A stretch of 61,931 nucleotides of DNA, counting the filler, from Hausera hauseri (taxonomy: Eukaryota), in NCBI GenBank assembly GCA_046269625.1. It is 10 parts of 10 records of this genome, joined end to end, with 100 filler letters (N's around TTAATTAATTAA, not from the genome) between each part and the next. Parts side by side here need not be neighbours in the genome. Positions count along the whole stretch, not along the records: positions 24,533 to 29,980 come from JBJURY010253403.1; positions 30,081 to 34,596 come from JBJURY010545787.1; 8 more parts are not named here. One strand, given 5' to 3'. The stretch's first letter is position 1. Each line of letters begins with the position of its first letter. Below, piece by piece: positions 11,926 to 43,807 of the stretch. Position numbers and translations under genes: made by a program. The notes beneath the pieces are model-generated. The model searched no databases. It had not been told where the DNA came from and saw only the letters and a program-made list of their open reading frames with translations.

Positions 11926-12039
11926 TTCAACAATTTGAACGAAACTTAAATGAAAGATTCGGTAAACTAGTACAGAAAGATGAAAACCATGCATCTGTAT
12001 CGCCGAATCACCATATACTTACTGTCATTGTTTATACTA

Positions 12040-12313: not shown

Positions 12314-12445
12314 NNNNNNNNNNNNNNNNNNNNNNNNNNNNNNNNNNNNNNNNNNNNTTAATTAATTAANNNNNNNNNNNNNNNNNNNNNNNNNNNNNNN
12401 NNNNNNNNNNNNNCATAAGGTAATCTAAATTCAAGAGTAATTCTG

Positions 12446-13440
12446 TTATATATAAGGGGCGTGAGTTAAGGGCCACCCATATATATAACAAGTGTAAAAT
12501 AGAATTTTATCACTTTTTGCCAAAATCCTAACTGGTATATTTCCTACTAGTTCTTCCGGTATTACGGTTGCGGTAGTTAGAGTTGTACTCGGAATAGTGG
12601 ACGGTTTTCTTGTAGTGGTTGGGAACGGAAGCTTCCATATTCCACTTCTTGGACGGTATCCTCTTAAATAAGTGCTTGGCTGATTTGGACTGACCTTATA
12701 TAGGTCTAATTGTATCTCGTAACTGTACCCTTGGGGTATTTCACAGCACGGTTCTGGGTTCCATCGACTAATACCGCAATATTTAGCTGGCGCACTCGGT
12801 TTTTTAGATGATATAAATCGAACCGAGATCTGGTAGGATTCGGTTAAACTTGTTTTAGTTTTTATTTGAATACATGCATTTTTAAAATGCGTGGAAACTT
12901 CCATTTTATTTTCGCTTAGTAATTTAATTCGAGGGTACGTACTTTGAACTATGTCGGATAATTTTACGTCATCCGTTTGGACCTGCTTGGACATAGCTAT
13001 TTCGACCAATGGTTGTATCTCCGCTCGAATGACCTCGTAAGGGTAATAATACATGAGTATTACGTATCTGTATGATTGTCCGAAATCCAGTTCGCAACAT
13101 TGCTTATAATTTCCATATCGGAACTCGCAATCTCTTATCCTTCCATTGTTCGGATCAGTAAATTTAAATGATTTTTTATATATTTTCTAGTAGCTTTGTC
13201 AGTTTTGAACCAGATACAGGGCTTTCTTTTGTCTATGTCATATGCTTTTATTGTTTCTAAATTTTCCGCATCTTTTTGTCCTTCCAGACGTTGTTGTTCC
13301 TCTTTGTTTTTAGCTCCTCCTCCACTTTTGCTAATCCCATACACATCTGCTAAACTGGATTCACGATCGTCCCACCATTGTGCTTTAGTCTTAGGAGCGT
13401 AAGAGGCGATTTACGATAAGGCGATGACTATTTGCACATA
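12446..13440 (-). pseudogene. Post-integrase ORF: hydrophobic signal-like segment, Cys-rich domain, Thr/Pro-rich stalk
   Basis: PISYVQIVIALS..YAPKTKAQWWDD..DVYGISKSG; ACIQ..KYC..PCC; PTTTRKPSTIPSTTLTT. Homologous to 44460-45433. Confidence 0.6.
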
Positions 13441-14650
13441 TGATATTGGTCTGGTTACTATCGACGACGTTTTCTTTTCTTTATTGGTTTTGCTCGAACG
13501 CAAATTATCACGTTTGTCTGGTCTTATTTCCGTTCTAACTACTCTCTGAATTGATATGACCTCTTCCTTGCCGTTTTTATTTATATAAACTGTGGTTGGC
13601 GTAACCTTGGTAACTTCATAAGGTCCTCTGCCTGTTCTAGTAAGTTTGAGAGATGTGCCTTTCTTCGCCACTGGATAGTGTACGTAAACCCAGTTTCCTG
13701 GTTCTAAGTCGTGTGGTTTAGACTTCTTCTCGTATTGTTTCTTAAATTGTTCCTGGTATTCTTTAGATAATTCCTTGGCTATTTTCCAACACTTGTACAA
13801 TCTCAATTGTAATACCTCGACAAAATTCTGCTCCAAATCTTCCGTTTTATTTGTGTAGGGAATCAATCCTAGATCTGTAAGCAGTACAGCTTTTCTACCG
13901 TACATCATGTAAAACGGAGTGAATCCTGTCGCCATATGCGAGGTAGTATTGATGGCAAACTGTGTACCTTCTAAGAACTCATCACAATCTTTCTGGTCCT
14001 TTGCGACTACGGTCGATAAGATCCGTATAACTGTCGCGTTCATTCGTTCGACCATTCCATTACATTGGGGATGATAAGCTGTGGTAGTTAGTCGTTCAAT
14101 CTCAAAAATTTTTGTAATTTTGTCGAACAATTCGCTCATAAAGTTTCTCCCTCAATCTGTCAAAATTTGTTTAGGTGGTCCATATCTACAAATAATCTTC
14201 AGGACTACTACTTCTGCCAAGGTCTCGGCCTTTTGGTCTACTAATGTTACGAGCTCGACGAAATGAATCAGTCGATCTACGCAGGTCAAAATGTATTTGT
14301 TTTTCTTGTGAGTCGTCGGTAATGGTCCTACAATATCCATAGACATTGCTTGCATTGGTCTGTCAGGCACATTGATAGGTTTAAGCTCCGCTATGTAGTT
14401 TTCGCTTTTATTTGTTAGGTTGCACACACTTCACAATCATTTACCCAATTTCTCACGTCGATGTAGATGCTCGGTCAATAATATTTATTTAATATTCTTT
14501 CCAATGTCTTTTTCCATGACATGTGTCCGGCCAGATATAAATCATTTTCGGCCATGAACACTTCCACTCATAATCCTTTCGGTATGACAACTAATTTTCG
14601 TCCTTTATGTTCGTAGTACAACACATTTTCGTGATTCATATCTCCAACGA
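13411..14650 (-). pseudogene. pol: Gypsy integrase (HHCC remnant, DDE core, GPY)
   Basis: GHMSWKKT..WVNDCEVC; MDIVGPLP; ILTD; AYHPQCNGMVERMN; TGFTPF; GPYEV. Confidence 0.95.
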
Positions 14651-14859
14651 CGCAGTATTTGTGACCATATCGTCGTAGGTGTTTCCGTAATTGATGACCC
14701 CTTTGTGTTTTGTTGGTATTAACGAACTCTAAAATTTGTTATATGACTTTGTCTTTTCTTTGTTCGATAGAAATTTTCATTGCCTTATCTAGCGTAAGAG
14801 TCCGTTGTCTTTCTACTAAATCTTCAAGGTGGGCTATCCTCATTACCGTAACTGCGCTT

Positions 14860-16372
14860 GCTTTAGTTTTAAGTCTCGATAATGCATTGGAATGGATGTG
14901 TTTATTTCCGGGTTTGTATTGGAATTAGATATTGTAACGTGAAATCTCCTCTATCCATCTGTTAAGTCTACAGGTTGGGTTATTTGCCCTACCTTTTAAG
15001 GTGGTAACTGCCTTGTGATCGGTAACGATTACGATCTTTTGTCCATAGACGTATACATAAAAATGTTGCAAGGCTTCTTTCACCGCTACCGTTTCCAACT
15101 TCGTTACTGAAGAGTTCTTCTCGGCTTTCTTTAGAGACCGCCCTTCGTATGCGATCGCGTGTTCTTGCTCCTTGTCTTCACGTTTCTGAGCTAGCTCATA
15201 TCCGATACCTTCCTTACTGGCGTCTATTTTGATTATAAACGGTAGGTTGAAGTCAGGATATCTTATAACAGGTTCACTAGTTAAAATTTTTTTAATTTCA
15301 GCGAAAGCCTTTTGTTCGACATCGGTCCATTTCCATTTGATCCCTTTTTTAGTAAACGATACAAGCGTGCATTTATCTTTGCATTATCCGGTACATAAGT
15401 GGAATAATATCCACATAATCCTAACCAGTGCCTCAGTTCCTTTTGATTCTGGGGTTCCATGCAATGTGATATCTTACTTAATTGTGATTTATCTGGCTTC
15501 GACCCTCCTTCTCAAACTATATGTCTAAGGTAGGACACGGCATTCTAAGCCCATTTGCAATTCTTGGGATTCAGTTTCAATTCAGCTTGCTCCAATCTCA
15601 TGAGTGTACCTTCAATGTCTTTTAAATGTTTCTTTTCTATTTTCGAGGCAATCATGACGTAATCTAAATTGGCGAATGCGTGTTCCAGTATCATCAGCAT
15701 TTGGTTCATCATGAGGGTAACGATGGCTGGTCTGGTAGTTATCCCAAATGGCATAACGTTGAATTCGTATATGCCGTCGTGTGTCTTAAATGCCGTTTTA
15801 TAACGGTCTTCCTCCTCTATCTCTACTTGCCAGTATACGGATTGTAAATCGAAAGTGGTGAACCATTTAGCTCCCGAAAGTCTATGCAATGCTTCCTTTA
15901 CCGATGGCAATGGGAAGGAGTCTTTTATTATAAGTGTGTTTAGCGTTCGACAGTCGATACAAAATCGGTGCTTAGCGGTGTCTTTCTTCTTAACATTGAG
16001 GATAGATGAATACCAAGATCTATAGCTTGGTCTGATTATGTCAGCCTTTAACATCCGTTCAACTTCCTTAGTTATTTCCGGCCTTAACGAGTGTGGAGGA
16101 GGGTACAATTTGGGCATCTTTTGATCTTCCAAATCTATTTCATCGTTAGAACCAGGCTTCTTCTTAAGTGGGATTGTGAGTCTTAAGGTTTTGGCTCGGT
16201 CAATATCCTCTTCATCTTTTGCGATAACCGAGCTGTAACGAAAAAGTAAGTCGTAAAATCGGGGGGGGGAATTCGGCATCCTTATACGGTTTGTCTTCGA
16301 TCGTAATTGATGAAACTCTATACGTGTGCCCCAAAGTGGTATTAGCGTACAGTTTAATTGGAGTTGGTGCAT
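14860..16372 (-). pseudogene. pol: Gypsy reverse transcriptase and RNase H, decayed
   Basis: RFCIDCRTLN, DSFPLP, FTTFDLQSVYWQV, KTAF, VMPFG, degenerate YxDD (NLDY), KLNPKNC; RH IDAS..GIG..IAY.GRSL..AEKN..VTDHKA. Confidence 0.95.
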
Positions 16373-17159
16373 TATTCGCCATTCTAATTGGTACGCGACC
16401 CGTCGATACTCTGGTCAAAATGTTATTGGTCGGACTGAGAGATTCTTTTGGCTCAAAATTTACCGGCTGGTCGTCATCTTGATGTATTTGAGCGTATATT
16501 AATATTTCGGTTCTGGGTGGCACGTTTTCGTCTACGGGAATCCACACTTCTCCGAACTTTCTATCTTTAGTAGTTTTGACTCCTTTTATTGGGTTAAGTT
16601 CTATCAGCTTGCCTGCATTGACGTCGATTGCTATATTGGGTAGTTGTCTCAATAAATCGCATCCTAATACTACATCATCCGTTAGTTGCTCCATTACTAA
16701 AAATTCCTGGTGAAAAGACTGTCCCATTATGTGAATTTCTGGTTTCCATCGGGATTTCCTTTTTGATGATTGTCTGAAGGTTCCGATGCTTCCTGGATCT
16801 GTCGTAGGAGGCGGGTACAATTGTCCCCATAGAAATTGTGGTATTGAATTGTATTTGAACAGTGATATTTCGGATCCTGTGTCTATCAGCGCATATACTT
16901 CCCAATCTTCTAATCTAATTTTTGCAAATGGCCTTCCTTCATTTATGGTACCATAATAGTTTGGTGCCACCTGAAGGCGTCGGATCGTGGACACTTTGTA
17001 CCCGTTAATGGTAACATCCGTGGTTCCAACTGGCTGGTCAATTAGTTGTCTTAATTCTTCAATTGGATATAGTCCATTAGTCGCACCATTCGTGTTTCCT
17101 ATTCCTTGGTTCCTTAACTGGCGTTTGAACGTCTGGGTTCTGGAGATTGTGCGCTTCAC
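16212..17159 (-). CDS. pol: Retropepsin aspartic protease followed by a degenerate dUTPase-like spacer
   Basis: ALIDTGSEIS and DVVLGCDLL; downstream VPPRTE..VPIRMAN..IKLY..TTLG pattern. Confidence 0.9.
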   Translation of the reverse strand: MKRTISRTQTFKRQLRNQGIGNTNGATNGLYPIEELRQLIDQPVGTTDVTINGYKVSTIRRLQVAPNYYGTINEGRPFAKIRLEDWEVYALIDTGSEISLFKYNSIPQFLWGQLYPPPTTDPGSIGTFRQSSKRKSRWKPEIHIMGQSFHQEFLVMEQLTDDVVLGCDLLRQLPNIAIDVNAGKLIELNPIKGVKTTKDRKFGEVWIPVDENVPPRTEILIYAQIHQDDDQPVNFEPKESLSPTNNILTRVSTGRVPIRMANNAPTPIKLYANTTLGHTYRVSSITIEDKPYKDAEFPPPILRLTFSLQLGYRKR

Positions 17160-19438
17160 GGCTTCTCATAAATATTGATTGCGTTTCGTTTGGTTTAGGT
17201 ACTCTAGACGAGTAAATTATACCGTGATCGTCGACTACCGATCGACAATGTGGGGCAGTCGTTCTTTCCGTTTCGTCGATCTTACGCAATATCCCGTATG
17301 GTTTCGTTCCCTCGTAATGATTCTCCAAATTGAATGGCTTCCGATAGATATCTGTCTGGCACGAGCTCATAGATTGTATCTCACAATCTTCATATGTAGG
17401 TACCGTCGGCGGTAATATTGGTAACGGCAGTCTCATCACAGAGTAATTTTTGTGCCGGTTTGATCTAGAGATGACGTCCCCTCCCTTAGGCTCGTAATTA
17501 TCGGAGTTATTTTTTCGTTTCTTACTGTCTAGGAACTTTTGCCTACAATTGAATATGTACCTCTTACGTTTTCGGTTATGGTAGCCAACATGTCGCTCCA
17601 CATCTGTTTTCCATCTATTCTCTTCATAGGCTTTTAAGAACGTGCCGAAAGGCGTAATAATAGCCGTCAAAATTTTGCACGAAAATCCTGTTAAGGTGAA
17701 TATCTCATATCCATTTATGACTGCTTGTATTATAGCTTTTACCAGTTGAATTAAGAAGTACATCGCTTGAAATTTCGACACGACCTGCCCGAATATTAGG
17801 AATCTTCCCCAAATTTTGTACAATATTTCCGTAGTTACCTTTTTATAATAGCCGACGCCAAGTAATGACTCCCATTTCGCTTGGTAGCGCGAGTACTGTA
17901 ATATTGTATGCATTGATCGATTTAGTTCGTGCGTACGCTGACGAGGGAAGGCGAGAAACTGTCTGAACGCTGCTACTTCTTTTGGTCGGTAAATACCCTT
18001 CGTGGCTAAATCTTGAAATTTATCGTCGGTTATTCCTTTTATTAAGTTTGTCCCTGTCAACTTGGCAGGTGGTGCAATAATACCGCAGTTCGGTAAACTT
18101 ACCCAGTCGGTTTCGCTTTGTCTAAACATTGGCTCACCTAGACTGGTTTTACAGTCTCTTAAGATTGTCGGTTGAGTGGAATTAGCCAATAGTACCCTGG
18201 AAATCGGTGTTACTAATCCCGGTACGACCTGGTGTATTACTGGAAGTTCTTGTATACATCTCTTCTCTTCCACATTAATCGGTACGTCTTTCTTCTTGCA
18301 CTCATAAGTCAGTAAGACTTCTGCGGTTACCCGTCCAAAAACACCTTCCTTCATTGGAATTATTGGTGAGGTCAACTCGGGATTGGCATATATTAGAGCC
18401 AGTTTAGTTCTCATGATTTTCAAATCCAACTTGCAGCCGTTCGTTATCATTTTATGGTATAGCTCGGCCATTCCTGCTTGTCCATTATAATAGAAATAAT
18501 CGTCTCTGTTTTTCAAGTAATCTTTAATCCAACTGTCCTGAGTCTCGAGGTTGAACGTTCTGGCGTTTATTTCCGTCTCCGCGACAAAAAATGCTTCATA
18601 GTTGGTAGCATACATTATAACGTCGCATCTTGTAAGTACATCTTTAATCACCAACCTTAGTCCATGGGTATCCGAGATCAGTATTGTCGCTGTGGACTGT
18701 TCGGCTACATTTTCTCGTGTTTTCGAATTAGTTTCCATGTTACTTATGTATCGTTTTCCTTTCGTCTCGTTGAACTTAAGTTTTTTAATTCTGATAAAAT
18801 TGCAATTGGTCTTTTCTGGCGGTTCCCAAATTACCACGGGACTTCGGAAGGGGCACGTGCCATCCTGAATGTGATATTTGTGGTTTTCTGTGTAAAGCTT
18901 TGTAACGCTATGGAACATTACCTTTTGTAAGCGCATCTCGGTTTCGTAAAAGTCTACTACTACGATGTTTGACTCTAATCCCTTTCCCGTGTCGTACTCT
19001 GAACTATTACAATCCCCGGTATGCATGTCTAGTCTTTCTTACGTGACTTTACACACTGATTATTTTTCCTTCCTGCACTTCCAGTTCCATGCTGTCCCAT
19101 TTTATCCTTCCTGTCACTCTAGCTTGCTTACAATGATGACGTTCTAAATTCATCGGAATTGACGGAGTCGTGGGCTTGATTATTGAAGAGTGTCCATGTA
19201 CCAGTCCATAATGGAAAATGCTGCGAGATCGTCGCAACATACATTCTACTCCATCCCAGGTAACTAGTTCGCGCTGTTGATATAGCATATAATTTTTCTC
19301 CTTCGTTTCTAATTTATGTGACCTCGCGTCTTCGCATATTTCTAAGTCAATTAGTGAATATTTTTGGCCAAGTCTAAATTTATCACAATCATATACTGTA
19401 ACTGCACCCATTTGTCTTATTAACATTATCCTGGTCAA
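17077..19438 (-). CDS. Chuvirus-like (Jingchuvirales-type, class III/gB-like) envelope glycoprotein, one break near 19030-19050
   Basis: VYDC..YSLIDLEIC..LYQ..C..R..HYG..HSS..C...TG; GDC..Y; WEP..C; LY...C...LALI..P; G..AEV...C; C.QELPV..TP.SRVL..C; LATKGIY..FP; C-terminal hydrophobic helices WGRFLIFG..IKAII..GY..TGFS..LTAI. This follows the motif order of chuviral glycoproteins. Confidence 0.88.
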
Positions 19439-19456
19439 AAATTTGATTAGCCAGTT

Positions 19457-22400
19457 CTACTCATCTACTCTGGCATTTCCAATTACATTTCGTAGAAGAT
19501 CCACGAATCTATTGTTACCGCAGAAGAATCTATTTTGATCTTTCTCTTCCCTTTTGAATAACTTGGACCAACTCACTTCTCGAGGTAGTTGCCTGGCAGT
19601 CTTTCTTGCCAAGCTAGTAGCCTTGTTGAATTGGTTGGTTTTGATGGCCAGGTATAACAACAATTTTCTTAATTTTTCTATGACATTTTCTACCATAATC
19701 TTCTCGATTATCATTTCATCGCTCAAGGTACTTCTAGATAATTTACATCGGCGGCCTTTCATGGTCTTGGCAGCATTGAATATGGCCTTCTCTTTTTCAT
19801 CTAATGTCACTGCCGAGACTAGAGTGGTTTACTATTCGTATCAAACTTTTCATAAGTTCGCTCAGTTCCTCGTGGTCCGCATTGCAGGTTGGTATGGACA
19901 TTTGTCTCAGCTCTTTGATTAGGGCTCCATTATAGTCGATTTCTTCTTGTATCTTCCGTGGTCTGCCGACAGGACGCTTCTGTTTTGTTGCAGTAGGTAC
20001 GCTGCTATTGATCGGTACTAAATTTTTATCATATTGTTCCTTATCTTCGTCTGTCTGTAGGTACTTGAAGTATACTGCTGCGTCCCGAACTCCTATAATT
20101 CGTCCTACCCACTGTTCCTCTTTACCCTTTCTTATATCTTCTTCTTTTGTTTCTTTGATAGGAATGGTTACAACAATCCGGTTGGCTTCACCTGGAATAA
20201 TGCTGACTTCTATTAATAGCTCCGTTTCCTCTAGTATTCTCCATCTAAAATAGAGTCTGTAGCTTAACTCTTGTTTATATCCATTATTTTTTATCCGCAA
20301 TATTACGTCTTCCACGCAGGAGTGCGTAGTGAACTCGTGTTTCTTCTCGACCATTCAGTCAGATACTATCTTTACTGGGATTGTCTCCTCTAACTTTGCC
20401 TTTAAAATCCTAGCATATTTTTTAAGTAAAAGCTTAGGTACCGTGCTAGATATCGTACCTTCGCTAGCTAATTTAATTAGAGTGGGGACCAATAGCCTTA
20501 ATGGATTTTCCGTGAGGTTTACTTCGATCAACTGAATTAAATCTTTCTCAGCATTTACTGGGTCTAGGAGCATTCCCACGTTAAATCTTTGGTCCGAAGA
20601 ATATACCTCCATTTCATCCAATTGTATGGGAGTTTTCGGGTTTTCGGCAATCATTGCGTCTAAATATTTCTCCCATTCTGTTTCATTCTCGTTATTCGGA
20701 AGTTCATAGTCTCTTGTCGGTGCATCGGTTGGTCTATCCACACCTGCGGTCCATATAGTTTTTCTGAGTTCTTCTAGTTTCTGTTGCATTTTGACCATTT
20801 TCGTCGTTCGGAAACAGCGCCCATTAGCAGAGGTTTGACGTAGCAGTGTTAACAACGAACATAATTCTTCAGCCGGAATTAATCCTTGTTCTTGATAGCC
20901 TGTTAGTTTGGCGGTGACGTTTTTTGCCACCTTTGCACGAATTGTGACTTATCAGCCTTTTCTGCCTCTGTAAGGGCGTATTTGTTTTTATAAACTTCGA
21001 GTTCCCTAACTAGTTCGTCTAATCTCATTGCTCTCTGTTTAGTCTTAATGCAAGTTTCTTCGGCTTGATACATCTGCTGCAACAATTGTCTTAGTTTCTC
21101 GTCACTAATTTCTGCCATTTCTGCCTTCAATAGCGCTAATTCATACATCTCGTTAATACTGTTTGCATCTGGGTATATCGCATCTAGTAATTTTTTTACA
21201 AATTTAATCTCTTCGAAGCTAAGTTGGTGGTCGTTCTTTATTTTAATAAGTTCGGTATGATGCCTTTGATCCGTTCCATCCATCCATCTTTATGGGTGGT
21301 GTAAGAATTTCACCACTTCTTCAACAACTGACCGATATGCGGGACAAAAGTCCAGGATTTCAGGATCTCGAATCGGGATTTCCTCGATAGGTTTGGTTGT
21401 CAAATGTTGGATTTCTTTTAGGCGGATATCTCTTAATCTCGGATAAAAATCGCAAGTTGCATTTCTTTCCGCATGAAGTTTGTTTCTTCGCTCATCTTAT
21501 ATATATCATTTAGTATTGTCTTTTCATGTTTTTTTCCATAAAGTTTAATTGACGTAATGCCTCGAACTGGGTTCGGATGTCAACTTCTACCTTCATAGTA
21601 TCTAGGTTTCGGGCGTCTTCCTCTAATCGTTTCTTTACTCTAGGTTCGCTCTCCGGAAATTCTTTTTTTCGATTGTTGATTAATTCACTCAACCTGGTTA
21701 TTACTTTGGATTATTCGTTCAACTGATTAGTGATTTATGGCGTTCTCAATTTCGTTTTGTCTAACCTTTTGCAAGCGTCCTCTAATTCGTTATTCGGAAC
21801 TTTAATAAAATCGATGACCCGACGGGCGTAGTCGAACTCGTCTTTATATTAGTCAAACTCAAGAATACAATCCATAATTATTTTCTGTGTTTCGCCGTTA
21901 TTTGGATACATAATTATATTCCCCAGACTATATATTTGGGATCTTTTTTCAGCCTCAATTCTGATACGACTTTCCAGACTTGTATACTGTTTTGATGCCG
22001 TAGAAGCGGCCTTTATCATTTCCATCAAGGATGTAATATTTATGGAATCTATGCTTAACATATCTAGATCAATTGCTTCTCGTTCCTTGGCCGGTTTTTC
22101 CTTAAGTCGTTTGACTATTGCAAATTTCGGATTGGCTTCTAATGCAGTTAATAGAGACTGGGCTTGGTTGACTCTAGCTTCAATATCTTGGGTAGTTTTA
22201 TCCCACGTCTCCGGAATTTTCGTCTCAGTTTTAGTCCACCGTTCTAATTCGCGTTTCCATTGAAATAGTGTTTCTTTTGCCACCTCTTTAGGCTGATCTA
22301 AGTCAACAGTTTCACTTAGTTTCCCTTCACCATATAGCTTAATCTTTTTACATGATCTCTCTACAAACTGTTGTTCCTTGCCAGAAATATCCACTTGTTC

Positions 22401-23057
22401 ACTTATGGCTTTGAATTTTTCTAGATTTTGTTATACTACCTCTGGGTTGAGACAATTCATCCTCATTCTTTTTAATTCTTCGGCGTTTTTCCATGAGCGT
22501 CTGATTTTCCACTTCTTAGGATCGAGTTTCTCCTCTTGTTATATTTCCTCTTCGATAGCAGGTAAGGGACATACATCATTTATCTTATTTACAGATTTCG
22601 TCAGCTCACAATTTCGCCGGGCGTAGCTAAATTAATTTCCGGACCGTTCGAGGTGCACTTTATGTCGCTTTCTAATGCGATTTCGGTTTCTCTCTTTGTG
22701 TTAGGCTTCTCCTTAAATATTGGGGATCTCAAACGATCTCAGTGATAGACTACGGACTCTATTCTTGGTAATTTTAAGTATGAGAGGTTCTAAAAATTCT
22801 TCTCCATCGTCGGTCTCGGCCTCCTTGGTTACCCTTTTTATAGTACACTCGGGGTCTACATCTAAATCTACCTTATTCGGAGTCTCAGGTTTTTCTGTTT
22901 CGATTAACTCTTTGTTTGTCGTAGGAACGTTCTTTTTCTGTGCCATATCATTCAGCCTTGGTAGGGCAATGGAATGTTCATATTCTGTTTCTGGTTCGCG
23001 TATACCGTGATAAATGTCCAATAATCGTAGCTTATGCTCGTACTCATTTCTAGCCAC
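19457..23057 (-). pseudogene. Series of fragmented unknown ORFs (charged, coiled-coil-like; AT-hook KRPVGRPRK) between gag and the glycoprotein
   Basis: Near-continuous minus-strand coding in shifting frames. 20930-20355 and 20354-19797 are in frame across one stop. Confidence 0.6.
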
Positions 23058-23079
23058 TAAAACTTTAGTGTCTTTAGTA

Positions 23080-24373
23080 TCATGTTGGGCCTTTAAAAAG
23101 TGTTGTAAGTCTTGTACCGTAAATTGCTTCTAAGTTTTTATTTTTAATTACATTAGTTTTACTAGGTTCCACAAACGAGACACTTCGCGAGTTTGGACAG
23201 GATCTCGCTATATGTCCTTCTATTCCGCATGTAGATTGCGTTGTCATTTCTCCCGATCCTTTGTCGGCCATCTTCGTTCACTGTAGATTTCGATCTACTC
23301 GGATTTCTATTTTAGCCCTGCCGCACCGGGGCTTGCCTACTATCCACATTTTGGCGCTTATCATAATTCCGACTGTCATTCTGTCGATTAAAATTTTTGG
23401 AACCGTCTAGGCGTTTATCCGTATGATAGTTTGATTTACTAGAAAAACTATTTCTACTATTATCAAAATTCTGGTTGCTGTATCGATAATTCATGCGATT
23501 ATAATTACCGTTCTTGTTCCGATCGCCATAATTCCTGTTAAATCGTCTATCATTTCTATTATTCCGATTTTTATCGCTTCGGTCACTTCGATCATTGTAT
23601 CTATCATTTCTGTCGCTGTTTCTGGCATATCTATCCAATGACATTTCTAGGTCCTGAGCTAATTGTAATATCATATCAAAATTCTCCGGGCGTGCTAGAA
23701 TCAGTTGCTTTACTATGTCTTTAGACCAAATATCGTTTATTAACTGCGTCATCATCATGACGTCTAAATCTGGAGGGCTTGCCTTTTCTGCGGCTTCACG
23801 TTCTGATTCGTTTTTAGCCTTGGCTAAGTTTGCTATTCTTAAGGTGCTCACATAACTGTTCGTCAATTTTTTTTAAAGCAAAAGCGAATTGGGTTATCGA
23901 TTCAGCCTTTCGTTGAACTCTATTCTGAAAAACCATAAGTTTTTGTTGCGGCGTTACAGTCGATAATAATTTTCGGTTCAAGGCTCCTACCAGGGAGGAC
24001 CAATTTTTCTTCTCATCATCGGTGTGCTCGCTATAGGCATCAGAGGCCAAATTCTTTAAATATAACGACAGGCGTTAGCTGGAAGTCCAGCACATTCTGC
24101 GTGCAACTCATATGTTCTTAAGAATTCATTGAGTCCGTCCGGGTCTCCGTCGTACGCCAGCAGATTTAGGGAATCAAATGTGGAAATGTCTAACTTCTGA
24201 GCAACTGCTTGATTTTCAACCATATTTTCAACATTTATTAAATTTTGCTTAACTATCTTACGAGGTCTAATTCTCTTATCAGGAACTGTAAATTCCAAGG
24301 GTTGTTCAACAGCGTTTAAGTCGATTGGCTCAGTATTAGCTAAGTTTGTTTCAGATAAAGTACGTCTACTCAA
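23080..24373 (-). pseudogene. gag: Gag (capsid, Asn/Arg/Asp-rich region, degenerate CCHC knuckle)
   Basis: YDGD..EFLRTYE; WSSLV..L; RVQRKAESITQFA..L; CGIEGHIARSC. Confidence 0.85.
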
Positions 24374-24730
24374 CGTCTCACCTTGTCTATATATTCTATT
24401 ACGCGTTTCGCGAAGTGTAATATTTTCTTTACNNNNNNNNNNNNNNNNNNNNNNNNNNNNNNNNNNNNNNNNNNNNTTAATTAATTAANNNNNNNNNNNN
24501 NNNNNNNNNNNNNNNNNNNNNNNNNNNNNNNNATGCTCATAATTCGCTTAAGTGAACAATTATTACATACCACCATTATCCCTACATACACTTCACCATT
24601 AGTACAAGCTCACTTACTTAGACAATTGTATAATCTTTTGTCGAATTCATTGTATATCGAAGATGCTGACAATATAAATCATAATATTATTGAATTAAAT
24701 TTTAGTTAATTCTATCTATATTTAGATCCT

Positions 24731-25822
24731 CCAGAATGCATGTATTGCAGAGTAGTTCTCAGCGAAGTGTACAGATTAACACCATGCCTGCATATGGTTT
24801 GTCTATTTTGTATAGAGCGAATACGATCGCAAGCCCATCCTACACCTTACTGCCCTGTTTGTACATATGAAATCAAATATTGTATTCATCATGATGCATA
24901 TCCATCTGATGCTGACCAATCATTACTAGATGCACCAACCTTCGATGTTGTGGAACCCACGGATCATACTACCTACTATTACACCTGGAATGTATCAACT
25001 CCTTTTTCCATTCCAAATTTCCAATTACACATGTGCTGCCTATGCCAAAAACCTAATAGAATAGCTTATCAATTTAGTTGTTGTAACGCTGAGTACTGTG
25101 CCCATTGCTATCAATTAGAATCCCATCATCGATATTTAATCTGTAGCATATGTTATTTTTGCCCTCAATTCATCTACTCGTATTTTCATCATCCTAGAAG
25201 AGCCCTCCTTACTATTACTAATACGCCAATTCCTCAAATACTTCCAACGAGATACTTTCGACTAGAACAACAAGCATCAGTTCGAATTGAATTCCCAATT
25301 CATAAATTCGACCCTTCTACAATAACTAGACCACCACCAATTACTTTTCAAACACCTTTACCTCACATCAATGTTATGACTCTTTTACGCCAACCGTCTT
25401 CAATACCACATCCACGTTACCATCCTGAACAAATTACTAGATCATTGCCCGAGTTGCCAATACCTACACCTACAATAATACCTACACCCATTATTTCTTA
25501 CAGTCCACCACTACCAGTATCCCTGCAGGAAGATTGGTTCCCTGTCTTCAATAAATGCCCAATCGATCTTATATCTGATCTAGCCCCTCCTGACTTATGG
25601 GCAACACTACAATCTCACTACTACGACCAACTTCCTACCTACGAATGTACTATATGTCTTACCGAAAGAATAACAGTAGTTCAATTCCAATGTAACCACA
25701 AATTATGCGCAACCCGTTTCAACAAACTTCGATCTCAATCCCTCAAATCGATCGATCCAGAATATGCTCTTCAAATGACTTTTCAAAATGGTATCTCATG
25801 TCCATACTGTCGAGAACCATAA
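24731..25822 (+). CDS. Triple RING-finger protein (putative E3 ligase), probably the last exon of a spliced gene
   Basis: After acceptor TATATTTAG: ECMYC..PCLHMVCLFC..CPVC; CCLC..CC..YCAHC..CSIC; ECTIC..CNHKLC..CPYCR, with a Pro-rich linker. Open for 360 aa. Confidence 0.8.
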   Translation, partial: PECMYCRVVLSEVYRLTPCLHMVCLFCIERIRSQAHPTPYCPVCTYEIKYCIHHDAYPSDADQSLLDAPTFDVVEPTDHTTYYYTWNVSTPFSIPNFQLHMCCLCQKPNRIAYQFSCCNAEYCAHCYQLESHHRYLICSICYFCPQFIYSYFHHPRRALLTITNTPIPQILPTRYFRLEQQASVRIEFPIHKFDPSTITRPPPITFQTPLPHINVMTLLRQPSSIPHPRYHPEQITRSLPELPIPTPTIIPTPIISYSPPLPVSLQEDWFPVFNKCPIDLISDLAPPDLWATLQSHYYDQLPTYECTICLTERITVVQFQCNHKLCATRFNKLRSQSLKSIDPEYALQMTFQNGISCPYCREP

Positions 25823-25960
25823 GTCAATTACCACTTTTCTTATACCTATGACAATCGTACTCAACGTTTATGCCATTGGATGAATCCAGTGAACGATGCT
25901 ACTTTAACCATCAAACCTCGAAATCTCAGCTTCATCGATGTTGCTACCCAGAGTGATCCG

Positions 25961-25992
25961 GAGGACCGAATCCTTTTCAAAGGGGGGAGAAG
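25961..25992 (+). promoter_or_regulatory. Gypsy-type polypurine tract
   Basis: GAGGACCGAATCCTTTTC-AAAGGGGGGAGAAG is followed immediately by TGTTAG. Confidence 0.75.
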
Positions 25993-28900
25993 TGTTAGGA
26001 GCGACAAATGTGCGACAAAGACAAATGTGAGACAAATGTTAGAACCAACGACGATAACAACAGGTGCGACAAATGTTAGAACCGACGACGATAACAACAG
26101 AGTCGAGAGACAGGATCGATAATCGGCAACTCAAATCGATAACAAATTAAAAATCGATTAATCGATCTAACACTGACTAATGAACAATGACATGAAATTC
26201 GAAACACGAAATTCGAAATTGATTTTGTACGATCACTTTGACACGAAATTTAAAATTGGTTTTGCATGAACACCTTTTGAACTCGAACATTCTAGCTCGA
26301 TCGTACATTTTGTGTATAATAAAAACACATCTTGTAAGTTGTATATCAACCTTATATCAGTTTTCTTTTCTTGTGTCGAGCCCTCATGATGGGTATTTTT
26401 ATTGTGCTGTTGTATGGAAATTGCTTGTGACCCTTTTTTTACAATCAATTTGTTGGCCATCATGAAAAATACAAAATTAATAGAATCGTAAATTGAACTA
26501 GAAATTAGTTGGTAATTTGGTTTGACTTCGAATTAGTCAGTGAATTAATTTTAGAAAATGAATCATCAAGATGATGTTAATAATAAAATTAGATTTTAAA
26601 ATAATGCAATGATATACGAATGACGGCAAAGGAATGTAAAAATTAGATTTAAAAAATCCGTTATCAACCAGATTGACGTCATCCATATTAAAATAAAAAA
26701 TTAAAAATAAAAATTTGTCATCGGTTTGACCGATGAGTATAAATACGCAAAGATATTGTCAAAAAATACACACATCGTTATATTGCACCATAGACTAAAT
26801 CAAAATATTCGAAAAGGTATATTAGAGTTTAGATTGTCTAAATAATTATTAATTCCATACCATAGACAATCATACAAATACAGATAAATCGTTTCTAAAA
26901 TATTCGAAGTTAAATCTTGATAAATACTGATGGCTACACAGAGGAACCTTAATGCCGAACTCCCTGAGGATAATGTTGGTAAGTGTAAAATATTATATGT
27001 GTATCAATTGATTTATCACTAAAATTGTATTTGTTAATGTATAATGTTGTATAATTAATTGTTCTAAAAACAAATTCGAGAGATTCGATACGATTACTAG
27101 AATCTTAAAGAATCAGAATTGTTATTATTATGAATGATTTATTCAGATATTTCTAGACGTTTGGTAGCAATTGATCGTAGAAAACTACTCCAAAATATGA
27201 ACCCAAAGATCTACTTACTGGATAGGAAGAGAATTTTCATCGATAAATATTGTATTGTACGAAAAATCCAATTGATTTTAATATGAAGTGATAATGAGAA
27301 ACTATATGGATGGGGATACGATTCTAATGCTTTACAATGAAGATTGGGTCATTTTGTATACCTGAAATGTCGAAGAATTGTTGAGTTAATACCTTATTTA
27401 TGATCTGTCTGACTTAGTAAGACTAATTTGATAAAACGTTTCGTATATTCAATGCCTTTGAATTGTTTCATCTATTAATTAAAATTCGATATGTGTTTAG
27501 AGATTATATATTGATTAAATTGTCAAAAGGTTTTTTCATGGTGGATGATGCTGATAATATTGCAATATGATATACTCACAAGGTTGGGAAAGAAAGAGAG
27601 AAAATCACTATATTCCATCTTGACCCATTCTCCACTTATATGTCGTATCGGCTGATTCGATGACAATTATGTCCAGGAAAAGTTTTGAACCATAGATGAT
27701 TTTATGTAATAAAAACTAAACTAGATTTTTATTGGATAGTATATTTAAATGACGCTCGCTTGACGACGAAGTGTGACTCTGTGGTTAATTCATGTTGTCA
27801 TTACTCCATGAATGGTTAGTGAGGTGATATTCAGGATGTTTCTATGAATCGAAGCGGTTTGGTGATTGAAAGAATCGATGACTACAATGAAGTATGTTGA
27901 AAGTTGTCGGGACTGATTATGATAGAGTTATTCTTTGGTGTTTACCGACAATTCACTACCAACCTATATATTTAAAAATAACAACTCCCTTTTATTAAAG
28001 AATAAAAGGTGATATTAGTCGCGATAGATTAAATGGGTTAACACTCATACTATAACCCCTATAATACAATAAGGTAAATATATTTATTGTAAAAATTCTC
28101 CTCATTATTTTATAAATCTTCTCAATAAAAATGATATTAAAATAACTACCCGCATGACTGATAATTGTATAGAATGACGGATTGGTCGAGGTTGTACATA
28201 ATTTCATACATTATGAGGATGTGAAAATGATTAGAATCTTGAAATGGTCACGTCTACGGAATTCCAGTCGTTGCAGTAGTCCATTCAACATTTTAGGATT
28301 TTTAAGGAACGTTGATAATGGAGTATGAGCATTTGTAGAAACCATATAAGTATATACTTTAAAATCTTGGTTTAATGGAAATCGATTAATCGTTTGAACT
28401 TACACTAAAGGATTGGTTGGACAGAATATTGCACCCGTTCAGTTGGGTTATCATTACAGGAATTAAAAGGAAGGAATTGTTAAGATCGATACAGAGAAAC
28501 AATAGATAGATAGATTTGAACATGCATGGGTTAAGATTATCAATAAAACGTTTGTGATAGTTTCTGGAGAGTTATCAGTAAAGGTACGGAAATAAATTTT
28601 AGTCGTTATAGGATGTTAAGTTTATTTATAAAGAAATAGAGACATTAAATAAGCTAGATATTATAGTGATAAACCAACTTAACAAGAACGGTTGAGGGTT
28701 AGAATAGAGTATATAACAAACAGAAGTACAATAACCACATAATAGCATTGGGCGCAGATTACTTTAGTAATCGTACCGCCACCGAACAGACACGCCTTCA
28801 GGTTATATATGTTGGGGGTAATAGAAATAAAAGGGAAACGAAGAATTCGATACAGAAGTCAAACATATTGTAAATGTTATAGAAAATGTCATGAAAGCAG

Positions 28901-29001
28901 TTACATATGTTTCGGATAATATAACCTTCCAACATTGTAAATGTTATAGAAAATGTCATGAAAGCAGTTACATATGTTTCGGATAATATAACCTTCCAAC
29001 A
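25993..29001 (+). mobile_element. Candidate ~3-kb LTR
   Basis: Starts TGTTAGGAG after the PPT and ends CTTCCAACA (imperfect inverted termini) before a PBS. GACAAATGT repeats occur near the start, and a TATA box at ~26738. Confidence 0.55.
28868..29001. repeat. Perfect 67-bp tandem duplication at the candidate LTR 3' end
   Basis: TTGTAAATGTTATAG...CCTTCCAACA starts at 28868 and again at 28935. Confidence 0.95.
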
Positions 29002-29008
29002 TATAAAC

Positions 29009-29026
29009 TGGTGCCCCGAGTGAGGA
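29009..29026 (+). promoter_or_regulatory. Primer-binding site, complementary to elongator tRNA-Met 3' end
   Basis: TGGTGCCCCGAGTGAGGA is the complement of TCCTCACTCGGGGCACCA, resembling the animal tRNA-Met(e) 3' end. It lies 7 nt after ...AACA. Confidence 0.75.
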
Positions 29027-29156
29027 GCACTCTAGTAAAACCCACTAGCAAAACCACTCTAGTAAAATCACACTAGCAAAATTATTCTAGCGTAAATATA
29101 AGAGATATGATAATGACACTGTATATTGATATTTAATTGTTATAGGTAAACTTCAG

Positions 29157-29426
29157 GTGGAATGCCCGATATGTTTTGAAGAATTGGGCTTGAAATATGC
29201 TCTGTTCAGGTGTACACATTACATGTGTACACGGTGTGCGGATACGTGGATAGCAAAACGACAGAACTGCCCTTTCTGTCGCCGTAAGGTGACCATTTAT
29301 CAATACTGGAATGCCATAGTTGTCGTACTGCCCGAAGAGGATGAAGAAGAACCAATGGTGATCAACGAAGATCCGAACGACTTATACGTAGTGGGTCCCA
29401 ATGGACTCGTGTATATGGCAATTTAA
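29157..29426 (+). CDS. Small RING-HC protein exon with acidic tail
   Basis: ECPIC..RCTHYMCTRC..W..CPFCRR, preceded by AG acceptors (TTATAG, TTCAG). Confidence 0.8.
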   Translation: MECPICFEELGLKYALFRCTHYMCTRCADTWIAKRQNCPFCRRKVTIYQYWNAIVVVLPEEDEEEPMVINEDPNDLYVVGPNGLVYMAI

Positions 29427-29607
29427 TTTAATAAAATATTCATTTTATGGCCTTGATGAAGAACAATAGTAGATTATGGGCGGCCCAACGGAATTAGTAA
29501 TAGGAGATAGGGAGAAAATAATTTGATTATAGTATCAATAACAGCATAATGTTTATCTTAGAAAAGAATAAATCGAAGAATTAAGTGAATTATATTGATT
29601 TCAGGTT

Positions 29608-29840
29608 GCATCATCTGTAAAAGATTTCCAGAAACTTGGGATGAAGAGGAGAATCCCTGTCCCCTATATTATTTAGTGGAGAAATTAATTTAACCAGAAG
29701 ACCTATTCGAGTGCGGTCATTGTGGGGAAGAGGCTAACTTAGGCTTAATGACGTTGTATGAAGATTACCGTTTATTATGTCCTGTTTGCGCTCTGACGTT
29801 GAATGATATAGAAGAAATTAACAAATTGATTAACTTATGA
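29608..29840 (+). pseudogene. Cys-rich zinc-binding ORF remnant
   Basis: Manual translation CIICKR..CPLY..*..ECGHCGE..LCPVC after acceptor TTTCAG. Confidence 0.4.
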
Positions 29841-31261
29841 AATTTGTAATGGAAATAAACAAATTGATTTTTGTACCTAGTGAAATTTGGTTTCGTTGAT
29901 TTTAGAAAGATGCCCCATCGGTTTGGATAACATAGCAGGCGAAAGGACGGTGCTACCATGTCAACACCAGTATTGTACTCNNNNNNNNNNNNNNNNNNNN
30001 NNNNNNNNNNNNNNNNNNNNNNNNTTAATTAATTAANNNNNNNNNNNNNNNNNNNNNNNNNNNNNNNNNNNNNNNNNNNNCTTGAACAGGCAACTCTTGA
30101 ATGTACCCAAAAAATGATTAGGACAGAAAGTCCAAAATATTGGTAGTCTGGGTGTTACATTCAGAATATACAGCTTTTGGGAATGAAAAAGGTGGCCAGT
30201 TACTGCTGCTTGGGAAGATTTCATTTAAAAATAACACTACTCAGGCATAAATATATTAAGAATAATTACCCTGTTCAGAGAAGTACAGATACTTCTAAAC
30301 AATATCCTGTACATATGAATATATGTACTTGCAATAAGTACTCTTTGCCCATAAATGTATGAACTTGCAATAAGATCCTGTTCACTAGTTTAGTCAAAAG
30401 GTCAACATCTTTGCACATGGATATGTATCCATAAGTTCTCCATTCTCCTCCAATTTGTATATCTCCTCAGTGCACATGCTCTGTTGCACCAGCAGATTTT
30501 TCCTACAATTTTTTTTTTGGACAGTAGCTGTTAGGCCTACTATTTTTCAGTTTCCAACTGCCAAGGGATTCTTAATGTATATGACAATACACACGGACAT
30601 CTGATCTCACTACCCAGAGATCAGGAGAATTTTTTTACCAGATGATCCATGACAAAAAATCATGAGTGCTTCCCTCAGGGATTTGAACCAGTACCTCTAG
30701 CATTCAATCCCAGCTGTGTGCATTAGATTTTGTTTTTGACCAAAATGGCTCCAGATGCCCACCCAGCCTCACAAATGTGTACCAGAGAAATTTTCTGGGA
30801 AAGTAAAGGTGGCCTGGTGTTATGCTGACAACATCTCGGGAACCACTACATGGGAAGCGACTAGCCGACGTCGTTGACTGAAACATCCAACTGTCGATAA
30901 TGGGGACACACGTATTCACTATGCGACACTACAGCTCGCAGTGTCGCCAGGAGCACTCTGTCGCTCTGGCAGCAGACCGGACCTCCACAATGGAACACAG
31001 CGAAACTGACACAGTCATTACACAGGAACAAGGCCACAGCTGCACTTCTCAAACTGACGTGACTGGTCCTGCCGCCATGTTGGAACTGGAAGTGTGTGGG
31101 AAGAATCTTACAGCAATTAACCAGTAATTATGATTTATGCTATTACAAATTTTTCATACAGTTTTAAAGACTGTTTTGTTGTATAATATTTATAATTATC
31201 ATTAGATTTATTTAGATACAATTTCAGTAAATTTTACATGAGGTCAAGATGTAACATTTAA

Positions 31262-39100: not shown

Positions 39101-40299
39101 TATTTGGAATATGGCAAACGATAGACGTTGCCTGTATTTGTGAATTTGTCATCTGAGAAAGATGGATTTGAGTCCGATCCATCCCGAAGGCGAAAATCAA
39201 GCATGAGATAGATGACTGGACGTTCATGACAGAAGAAAGACCGGAATGCGTCGATAGGATGTGTAGTGATGCCTCGGTGTGTGAAACAGAAGTTGGAAGT
39301 GTTGAGTGAAGTGGATAAAGAAGTGTATAGGAGCTGCGCCGTGGCGTAGAGTGTAGCTCTAATGGTTCTAATGTGTTGATTATTGCTGAAGACTAGGAAG
39401 GAGAGTTGCAGCGAAATGATCCCAAGGGAATGGTAAAATGCATGGGAAACTTTGTGGGTTTCCTTCTTTGTTAACAAGGGGTACGGGCGTGCAGCTGCGG
39501 TAGCAGTGGCTAATGATGATTGGGATAAAGGGGTATCCAAAGACATTAAGCTTAAAAAACTTTTAAAATGAAAAATTGTGTTAGCGCAAAAAGTGGTAGC
39601 ACTGGTGGGTGTAAACCGGCAATAAGAGTCTCACCCACCTGTGTTTTAATGTCCGAATACTGATTGTAGCAAATTGCCACATCTGAAGTGTTTTTCCCAC
39701 TGGAAGGTCCTTGTTGATGAAATTGACGCCCGTCTCGTCCACACATCTCGAATGTTTGTTCTTTCTATTGTCGAATANNNNNNNNNNNNNNNNNNNNNNN
39801 NNNNNNNNNNNNNNNNNNNNNTTAATTAATTAANNNNNNNNNNNNNNNNNNNNNNNNNNNNNNNNNNNNNNNNNNNNTAAAGAATAAAGTGGAACAATGG
39901 TTGAATAGAATAGACGAAATTTATTATCTGAGGATTAAAGAAAAGAAGTGTTTTGTTAAAATGGCCTAGAATCGCAACGAAGGTAAAAGTCATGTCGGAA
40001 TAATTGCAAAATGTATTAGCAACGAACGACTTTGTTGGATATTGATTGTATTTTAAAAGTCTCAGGCAAAAGAAAGCGTACGGAATCATAAAAGGCAAAG
40101 AGAGAGGGTTATACTGACAAGAGGGACCAGTAACAAATGCAACCAAATTGAAACAGCAAATAGAAACTGCAATAACCGGATTTTGGTCAACCTCTATTCC
40201 ATTAATCCCTGTGTAAATATTAATGGTATTTTTACAGAAAACGGCCAGTGTAATTGAACTATTATTCGAAATTGGCATAAATAAGAATATTATGAAATA

Positions 40300-43200
40300 A
40301 ATAACACCACGCCGTGAACATAGTGTTTCAGGTCGATCGTCTACGTTTACAAAACAACTGGTAATAAAATCGTAAGCCTATTTGGACATCCTGTCACTAA
40401 CTTGGGGTATGTTTGGTTTTTTCTTCAATTCTAAGTTATAATAAAAAGTATATTGCTGTGTATCTAACCAGGGGCTGCGTCAAGTTACCATGTAAAGTGC
40501 AACGCATTCCAATGACCAAATGTCAACTTTATGATTATATACTGTTTTCGATACATTTTTGGCACTGTCGACGATTATAACTTCATGAGCTATGTACCTT
40601 ACAGTACCAGTAATTTCCTTAAGACCATCTACATGATTTTTCAAGCATTTTGCAACTCCAAAGTCACTAAGTTTTGCACGGCACATATTGGTATCCTCGA
40701 CCTTTACAAAAATATATTATCGGGTTTGATATCACGATGAACAATTTGATGGTCATGCAAATATACAACAGCCTCTAAAATCTGTTTTGTCCATTGTCTA
40801 ATGATAAAATCAGGGATATCACGTATCGTTATTTCGGATAGCGAACCACTATCGCAGTATTCGGTAAATATTCTAACGTAGCTGAGACTCATACCAACAC
40901 CGTAATATTCGATGAGTGACGGATGATTTAATTTACAGAGAATGTCGTATTCGAATGGGTTAAGAGTATAAGGTTCATTGCTAACAACTTTTTTCATGGC
41001 CATTATTTTCATCGCATCCAAGTATCATACTTTAAAAACCTTTCGGATCGACCTTGTCCAATAAAGCTTTTCTTAATCCATTGAAACGATGCTCGTTTAA
41101 TGTAATGTAATTTATTAGTTTCGCTACTAGAATTTCGAACAGTACCCATCAGTTTATTATCGAGTCTCTTTTTCTCATTGTTTTTCTAATAACTCTATTT
41201 TATGATTTAAATTCTTTTGTTTGCGACACAGTTTCCTCAGTGCTACTGCCATCAGTTGATTTGTTGCTGTGATTGTTGCTGCCAATATACTGTATCGAAC
41301 CATCAATTGATATCGTCGTAGCGTTCGGTGAAGATATTTCAAAGGAGATTTCATTATACGATTCCATTGGTTCTTTATTAACAAAGAAGTTCTTCATTTT
41401 TGAAGAGAAATCTTTATCAGTCTGAATTATGTCAGAAGGTTCACTAAAAACCATTCGCAATGTTCCACCATCCCATACAGTTTTCCAATTCTCAATTTTA
41501 TTGCAATTGGAAAATTCATCAGAATTTTCATTGCCTCTAAAACTGGTGGCTTCGTCTGAGAAAGCCACGATCTGCTCGAGACAATTCGACTACTTGTCGT
41601 AGAACGAGCAGCACTGCTGAAACTGTTTTGTCGGCTATTTCTGCCAACGCTAAACTCAACGAAATTGTCAATGCTCCTTTTAAAATCAATCCATTCATTT
41701 GATGTCATATTCAATACTACTCGGCTTTGGCAAACTTGGAGAAGGAAACTCAAACCGTCGTTGGCCCATCTCGGAACAGTTCCTTGTTCACTTGGTTCGA
41801 ATCGTTTCGAAAATTTAAACCTTTTATCCATTAAACCGATAATTGTATTCTTTAGAATGTTTTTAAATGCATCACCTGTACAAATCCGTATTAGATCGCG
41901 ATAAAATTCAAATGTAATAGTATAGGAATTTTTCAATGAACTTCTAATAGTTTCTTCGATTAGATTACTGCCACTTTCACTGGTGTTAAATATATCTTTG
42001 TCATCATTGACAAAATGATTCTGTAAAGTGTATGCCACTTCAATTACTTTGCTTTTCAAAGAATTTAAGTTGAGCTTCGAATTAAAGTGAAAAGCTTCGA
42101 TTTGATAGTCAACAGTATTCTGAACGATATCACGAAATGTATCGTTAGTTTTCGTTGTATGATGATGCAGAATTTTGTAATCTAGAAGCTGATTAAATTG
42201 TTCAACCAATTCATCTGGTCTTCGAGCAATGAAAACAATATTCGATCTTTCTATTCGTTGTTTTAAGTTACCAATATCCAGAGGATAATTGCAAAATACT
42301 CTTTCACCTGTCCAGTTTATCTTAGACTTTTTATTTATTATCAAAAGATATTCTCTTGAGATCTGATGCTTCGATGACTGAGAAGATGAGGATGTTTGAA
42401 CTAAACACTCATCCATTTGCTGTAAGGAAAATCCGGTAACCAGAGGATGAAGCAATTCTTTTAGGTAAGGACTGCTTTCTTCCGGAACAATAAGTGTGAG
42501 ACCGGATTGAGTATCACACAAACATAAATCCACCAATTTATGTCGTGTTCTGCTCAGATACAACAAGAGATCATTAATGGAAAAATTGCTATTAAGTTCA
42601 ACTTGAATGCATATTTCCAAGTCAGATCGGAGCATTTTAGCAAATTCTGTAGCTTGTTTCAATCTACACTGTAATGCTTTACATTCATTTTTATATGATT
42701 GACAAGATTTAGATAATTTTCTATTTTTCGAACTGATTATAGAAAACGAATCGTCCTCTACATTCGATGTGGGACTATCGTCTGGACTCAGGCTCGCGTC
42801 AAGATTTAATTTTGGACTTGAGATAATGGTTGAATTAAGAAGATCGAATAAGTATTCGGTTAGTTTACAAAAAGAGCTGGCAACAATTTCCTCTTCTTGT
42901 TTTATACTATGACAGTAACTTTTCACAAAATTCCATTCTTCGGCCAACAATTGACGTGGTTTATGTTGAAGCTTGCAGGATAAAGGTTCTTTACTCCATT
43001 TCTTTAACAGTTCTTTTAAACATTCCATATAGTGGCATAACAAAATGGATAAGTCTGCATCAACTTCTTTCATACTTGATCTCATAAATTCTGAATGATC
43101 AATATCTTGTTTCGGTGCAAAATTCTGACACCAATTTGTGGGTTGGAACAAATCTACTGTGTTGTAATTCATTAAATTCCAAGTCTTTAGCGAACGAAAT

Positions 43201-43780: not shown

Positions 43781-43807
43781 TCATTGAACACGCCCACGAC
43801 CGCGGCA

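Follow-up and report, generated by a model that had tools for sequence, protein, structure and literature searches.

A candidate 3-kb LTR junction with predicted RING ligase exons on both sides in a likely Ty3/gypsy-type family of Hausera hauseri

In the relevant section of PMC6431247, Burro and GYPSM1 are described as giant, high-copy Ty3/gypsy elements of planarians with accessory ORFs, one of which lies upstream of gag in an element from Dugesia. The same section lists ubiquitination-related domains (MATH, Ubi2/SUMO-like and BIR; PMC6431247). An untested suggestion put forward for Burro is that giant elements interfere with host ubiquitination. Errantiviruses with the order GAG-ENV-POL and a gB-type env occur in flatworms, nematodes and bryozoans, according to the main text of PMC13524379. 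LTR retrotransposons of bdelloid rotifers have an ORF3 downstream of pol, described as being expressed by way of spliced messages (in sections of PMC5408684), and LTR-mediated retroposition places intron-free pieces of host mRNA inside an element (in sections of PMC5131818). Giant size and multi-kb LTRs, as well as accessory ORFs and domains related to ubiquitination, are already known from the parts of PMC6431247 and PMC5408684 cited here. Titles and abstract starts contained no report of C3HC4 RING accessory genes in LTR retrotransposons or of such genes standing free at both ends of a gypsy element, most subscription literature and Repbase being outside that scope.

RING E3 ligases are also carried by viruses, including herpesvirus ICP0, baculovirus IE2/PE38 and poxvirus p28. 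Here we describe a locus in a window of 61,931 nucleotides from Hausera hauseri (GCA_046269625.1), which consists of ten contigs with N spacers between them. The subject is contig 4 (24533-29980, JBJURY010253403.1), taken whole, and all of its features given below are on the plus strand. Our main reading, to which we assign a probability of about 0.6, is that contig 4 joins the 3' end to the 5' start of a high-copy Ty3/gypsy-type family across a likely single 3-kb LTR, flanked on either side by RING exons that would encode E3 ubiquitin ligases acting against host proteins. We hold with equal confidence that this is one Burro-like Ty3/gypsy family, with fixed LTR ends, a subfamily-specific long U3 and spliced RING cassettes.

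Landmarks and depth of the junction

A polypurine tract (PPT, 25979-25992) is followed directly by the TG of the candidate LTR start, as is typical of Ty3/gypsy elements. As a chance control, contig 4 was resampled 2,000 times with a first-order Markov model, and a comparable purine run with TG appeared in 14 of the resamples. The candidate LTR (TGTTAG...CCAACA, 25993-29001) is 3,009 bp long and has a low-abundance interior between family-wide ends. It starts with TGTTAGGAG (25993-26001) and ends with CTTCCAACA (28993-29001), and the match between its termini, TGTTAG and CCAACA, is imperfect. An exact 67-bp tandem duplication over the LTR end (28867-29000) creates another CTTCCAACA at 28926-28934, and the LTR length without this duplication is 2,942 bp. 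Behind CCAACA, a 7-nt spacer (29002-29008) leads to a primer-binding site of 18 nt (PBS, 29009-29026) that is complementary to tRNA-Met(CAU), so that the terminal CA is followed by a tRNA PBS. The spacer is longer than the usual 1-3 nt and lies within the shared part, as family-wide similarity begins at 28995-28996. The LTR head does not recur inside the 3 kb (head against rest, score 23; shuffled mean, 22), which also contains neither a PBS-like site nor a purine tract linked to TG, and TGTTAGGAG occurs only once in the whole window. Contig 4 holds a single LTR copy, and neither a second copy nor a target-site duplication was found. The PPT with its adjoining start sequence, the terminal CCAACA, the length between them, the lack of a second start copy and the tRNA-Met PBS are all located where the original prediction had placed them.

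In the supplement of PMC13524379, two Met_CAU tRNA ends each differ by one base from the 12-nt complement of the PBS, and the exact 12-mer is absent from the entries there. This 12-mer arose in none of the 2,000 resamples. The identical 18-mer is present at 58 metagenome loci (L001-L058), none of which contains a RING motif; the 15 of them that were scanned contain no tRNA genes. In 48 of these 58 other loci, AACA lies 1-3 nt upstream of the PBS, as at the end of an LTR. We note that one metagenome assembly accounts for 48 of the 58; their sequence varies ahead of a common AACA end, and these 48 loci are another high-copy Met-primed family. The PPT motif had no match in viral or prokaryote genome contigs.

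When two LTRs are longer than the reads, their collapse during assembly gives the order 3' internal, LTR, 5' internal. On contig 4 this permuted order would have arisen where a short-read assembler merged two LTRs that are nearly identical, or would reflect an LTR shared by tandem copies. The locus L033, from another metagenome, contains an integrase, a 709-aa ORF ending across the PPT, 1,804 bp from TG to AACA, the identical PBS and a gag-like ORF (recognized by eye). The layout is therefore an ordinary one, because L033 has it too. We note that the 709-aa ORF (L033:2313-4442, minus strand) lies between pol and the PPT and has no Pfam match, and that L033 pol has a long terminal extension with a hydrophobic C-terminal stretch.

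Two runs, X1 and X2, contain the stretch, and X1 may be the source sample. Depth is given here as summed contig depth at 85% likeness in run X1, which is not a copy number. Values are 11,673-28,452 for ORF-A, the exon 5' of the PPT described below, 17-95 for the 3-kb interior and 131-974 for the 5' side. The PPT bin (32,074) and the PBS bin (13,265) have depths of similar order, and all 30 bins are covered, none being at zero. An LTR at about twice the depth of the internal region had been anticipated; at this likeness the interior departs in the opposite direction, being lower than ORF-A by two to three orders of magnitude. In run X2, ORF-A and the PBS were covered and the 3-kb interior was almost bare (0-3.6), which marks an uncovered part and is given no evidential use.

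Contigs that leave or join unlike sequence mark both borders of the 3 kb. Among the rows listed (6 of 71 loose-end rows of run X1), 23, 22 and 26 contigs exit behind 25977, 25996 and 25997, with agreements of 0.77, 0.54 and 0.51, so that at least 71 contigs exit into unlike sequence at or just past the PPT. Because agreement behind 25996 and 25997 is near 0.5, many unlike sequences follow one PPT and TGTT(A). At the other border, 15 contigs enter from unlike sequence before 28995, just ahead of CCAACA (agreement 0.49, among the same rows). Both ends of the 3 kb are thus points where family-wide similarity stops or starts, and family members share only a few bases at each LTR end. Of the breakpoints that had been predicted, the loose ends at the two borders are present; host flanks were not found among those 6 of 71 rows, which include none 'before 25993' or 'behind 29001'. 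No contig among the pieces listed spans the whole stretch, and the 3' side, the interior and the 5' side may therefore stem from different copies.

RING and zinc-finger exons on both sides

The contig begins with an AT-rich, intron-like stretch (24533-24725) that has a depth of 11,673 in its first bin and belongs to the family-wide 3' internal region. It ends at a candidate splice acceptor (AG at 24725), where splicing may occur. The accessory exon that follows, ORF-A (24726-25998), was delineated with Pfam and homologues and carries a C3HC4 RING, then a Cys-rich finger in the middle and a Pro-rich linker, and lastly a second RING. Its Pfam RING matches, at residues 3-51 (E 1e-4) and 308-364 (E 5e-6), are both under the curated cut-offs; in the first finger, the C3HC4 motif itself is present with a score below cut-off. 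The middle finger has invariant Cys without a His ligand and no match in Pfam or the PDB. Two AlphaFold models, one of them touching the middle finger, had pLDDT values of 30.6 and 38.8, too poor for a fold search. The 'triple RING' that had been reported 5' of the PPT is thus retained for the two outer fingers, at sub-cut-off scores, and the middle one is a Cys-rich finger that may or may not be a RING. In this copy ORF-A is broken by a premature stop (25820-25822) and a frameshift near 25973, and one metal ligand is gone from the third finger. The contig-4 copy of the element is decayed.

Relatives of ORF-A are few. Two were found in 677 candidates, and a profile search returned six, namely three family members and three weak RING matches (E 3e-4 to 8e-4); there were none in viral or metagenome contigs. 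P0001 is 65% identical with an open frame of 425 aa and is encoded on a 19,467-base contig, and P0002 is 58% identical with an open frame of 383 aa. In both, the frame extends over the PPT and terminates where the LTR begins, and P0006 terminates in the same PPT/LTR-start stretch. Across the family, 22 of 24 scored Cys are invariant, compared with 156 of 355 positions overall (7 sequences, some of them near-duplicates). Because the frames of the relatives pass over the PPT, terminate where the LTR begins and keep their Cys, ORF-A is, as far as sequence can tell, selected cargo of the element and not flanking host DNA. We note that the open relatives, the kept Cys and the fixed stop argue for selection on ORF-A; they do not bear on RING-B.

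Three further exons lie 3' of the PBS, each beginning at a candidate splice acceptor. RING-B (29146-29426, AATAAA at 29430) is an open 92-codon exon with a C3HC4 RING and an acidic tail. It matches Pfam zf-C3HC4_3 with 38.3 bits against a cut-off of 27, has eight ligands in C3HC4 spacing, and finds 34 PDB sequences at E<=0.001, almost all of them named E3 or RING proteins. No ATG precedes its RING, and it is only about 30% like ORF-A over the RING. Exon C (29605-29840, AATAAA at 29854) is a Cys-rich, zinc-finger-like ORF with one in-frame stop and weak Pfam matches only. Exon D (29906-29980) is the beginning of a further RING (zf-C3HC4, E 0.026) that is ended by the contig end. The RING and zinc-finger exons foreseen on this side are therefore present as RING-B, the sole exon here above the Pfam RING cut-off, and as the Cys-rich exon C; exon D is a weak match truncated by the contig end. 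Five candidate acceptors, chosen by eye, all open in phase 1, and each has 1-5 local phase-1 ATG leaders; a leader shared by the cassettes is only a hypothesis. It is worth noting that just past the PBS (29026-29195) skips of 98 and 163 bases occur in single contigs, the 163-base skip leading into RING-B, and that six contigs diverge behind 29031. The 5' cassette region therefore varies between copies.

The predicted junction of 3' internal region, LTR and 5' internal region of a Ty3/gypsy-type element, with RING exons on both sides, is upheld by the tie of ORF-A to the PPT, by the divergence points at the borders and by the L033 layout with its pol and gag-like ORF. Under the main reading, splicing is predicted to release the cassettes as individual messages: unspliced genomic RNA would be packaged, which would keep the introns, and spliced RNAs would express the cassettes. 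The RING cassettes have predicted E3 activity, and their RINGs would recruit host E2 enzymes for the removal of silencing, antiviral or cell-death factors. We name this target class only tentatively, and Gag self-regulation or a decoy role are alternatives. The cassettes resemble the viral RING ligases in being small RING proteins of a genetic parasite, without specific homology beyond the RING fold; the herpesvirus RING 1chc was met in the PDB search.

The 3-kb interior and competing explanations

Two islands inside the candidate LTR are shared more widely than their surroundings. The first (26260-26469) is common to more relatives, has a depth of 61.5-94.6 against about 23 on either side, and contains AATAAA at 26318 with a T/GT-rich tract behind it. 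This AATAAA, ~330 nt into the LTR, is likely the poly(A) site of the ORF-A message. The second (28751-28831, depth 83-88) has a TATA-like box near 28800 and AATAAA at 28826, and is likely a promoter/R region. Ten contigs have loose ends before 28751, and two joints or contigs jump from this island to 28996, the LTR end. Between the islands, the segment 26738-27970 begins with TATAAATA at 26738 and is probably a decayed spliced gene, putatively coding. Its signals include a TATA box, an ATG exon of 16 codons (26930-26978) with a GTAAGT donor, and an acceptor at 27146, followed by stop-riddled frames. A six-frame Pfam scan of the 3-kb interior gave no match and recognized no host gene. PHROGs and PDB searches gave no match either, Rfam gave nothing credible (one match, E 0.84), and the interior contains no tRNA gene. 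The interior is repeated: near-exact pieces of it recur, and 3 of the 8 pieces listed are about 12-13% diverged (26-66 differences within 223-504 bases). Because diverged versions exist, the interior is a small repeat family and not unique DNA. In our preferred reading, it would be a long subfamily-specific U3 that can carry small genes of its own, and promoter and R would lie near 28750-28830.

Some observations do not sit easily with one family. The 5' side (131-974) is far scarcer than the 3' side (11,673-28,452), and a sense-strand AATAAA follows each cassette, which would need read-through by the genomic RNA. It is conceivable, though unlikely, that two different elements or copies meet on contig 4, whether through tandem or nested insertion, through recombination between elements or through a chimera of the assembly, and that the 3 kb is a mosaic and not one LTR. 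Such a meeting would fit the 20- to 100-fold lower depth of the 5' side, the lack of a spanning contig among the pieces listed, the imperfect TGTTAG and CCAACA with a 7-nt spacer, and the low likeness of about 30% between ORF-A and RING-B over the RING. It is harder to reconcile with an interior that contains no second head, PBS or TG-linked purine tract, with borders that are both family-wide divergence points of similar abundance, and with coverage of 30 of 30 bins. Less probable again is that short true LTR parts, a head to about 26470 and a tail from about 28750, surround captured foreign DNA. The low-depth middle between two shared islands, the poly(A)-like site about 330 nt into the LTR and the gene-like exon/intron signals would agree with a capture, and contigs 7 and 9 do carry host-like gene pieces beside gypsy sequence. 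However, Pfam finds no host gene in six frames of the 3 kb, diverged copies of the middle exist, and an intron is apparently kept, unlike in the mRNA capture described in sections of PMC5131818. A captured middle also overlaps with our best reading, as filler enclosed by fixed ends would go on being copied as LTR.

The cassettes themselves could be neutral hitchhikers or dead captures without a role for the element, the least probable of these alternatives. ORF-A and exon C are broken in the contig-4 copy, RING-B has no start codon before its finger, and RING activity is a prediction, all as expected of neutral cargo. It is countered by relatives of ORF-A that stay open over 383-425 aa, are 58-65% identical and retain 22 of 24 Cys, and by the stop fixed at the LTR start.

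Relation to neighboring contigs and to described elements

Contig 3 (12414-24432, minus strand) carries the decayed remains of a gag-env(gB type)-PR-RT-RH-IN element, in which the integrase is followed by a hydrophobic stretch and an extension. It is collinear with the intact single ORF P0022 of 3,865 aa (27-45%), whose cluster has four members on contigs of 11.8-12.9 kb. Contig 4 had been proposed to supply the missing ends of this element. There is no gag, pol or env on contig 4 and no overlap between it and contigs 3, 6, 7 or 9; against contigs 3 and 7, neither an end overlap nor a blastn or tblastx match was found. A search with the last ORF of contig 3 gave 0 of 608 candidates, and a search with the integrase region gave 27 of 2,498, and no match sat on a contig of P0001's length, 19,467 bases. 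An element size above 20 kb is plausible because P0001 is encoded on a contig of 19,467 bases, and it is unproven because no second LTR, target-site duplication or contig-3 link was found. Contigs 6 and 9, which represent a second gypsy family, could equally well be the partners of contig 4.

The contigs around contig 4 contain gypsy relics, Polinton-like relics and host-like gene pieces, and from this content the DNA is probably that of an animal. Contigs 1, 2, 8 and 10 are Polinton-like relics with protein-primed polymerase B, endonuclease VII and chromodomain, and contigs 2 and 8 are 85% alike along 2.1 kb. On contig 9 (51088-56780), gypsy sequence related to contig 6 adjoins Not1 (E 8.6e-16) and weak FANCI-like pieces. 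Contig 7 (39880-45433) has an integrase and extension with 69% identity to the contig 3 counterpart; on the opposite strand before the integrase are a 610-codon unbroken MEKK4_N frame, a kinase piece, Glycos_transf_4 and a weak ER match. These host-like pieces look like stacked mRNA capture.

The contig-4 family resembles Burro, as presented in the relevant section of PMC6431247, in being a high-copy gypsy family with accessory ORFs and ubiquitination-related cargo, and contig 3 has the same gag-env-pol order. There are also differences. In that section, the extra domains of Burro lie mostly within one polyprotein and RING is mentioned only as an AIR1 annotation (PMC6431247), whereas the contig-4 family has free-standing C3HC4 RING exons at both ends and member-specific LTR interiors, which the section does not describe for Burro. 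A Burro element would have one gag-env-pol polyprotein of ~4,900-5,100 aa and a total length over 30 kb. Contig 3, which is broken, is collinear with a 3,865-aa single ORF. The Burro marker domains (MATH, BIR, BCL2-like, ankyrin, dUTPase) were found in none of the 15 contig-3 and 4 contig-4 ORFs or the contig-4 frames, both contigs being partial. The contig-4 family would work like a Burro-type element; it may or may not be a member of that clade, contig 4 being without pol and the marker domains not having been found.

Contigs 3 and 7 share the errantivirus order and env type (PF24664), the PR-RT-RH-IN order being found on contig 3, and tRNA-Met(CAU) priming occurs in the same data set (PMC13524379), in whose main text 'RING', 'zinc finger' and 'ubiquitin' appear 0 times. 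Rotifer ORF3, an extra ORF downstream of pol for which spliced expression is described, is like the contig-4 cassettes, whose splicing is predicted; its cargo differs, being DEDDy, GDSL, TM or env, and 'RING' and 'ubiquitin' appear 0 times in the sections of PMC5408684 cited. Template switching, as in the LTR-mediated retroposition described in sections of PMC5131818, could bring in new cassettes and LTR interiors. Unlike the products of that process, the contig-4 pieces seem to retain introns and match no known host gene.

A more far-reaching proposal, which we regard as speculative and rather doubtful, is that the family, a giant and very abundant one of animals, is a modular chassis. A few fixed bases per LTR end would hold swapped multi-kb interiors with their own spliced genes, and at least four intron-bearing RING/zinc-finger cassettes on both sides would, much as accessory genes do in complex viruses, arm the element with ubiquitin ligases against host silencing. 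If LTR interiors do differ between members, such a family would be hidden from repeat annotators, and the rule that LTR copies outnumber internal copies would be broken. Retrotransposon counter-defence is rarely tied to a biochemical activity, and selected RING cassettes may offer a direct test of the suggestion, put forward for Burro, that giant elements interfere with host ubiquitination.
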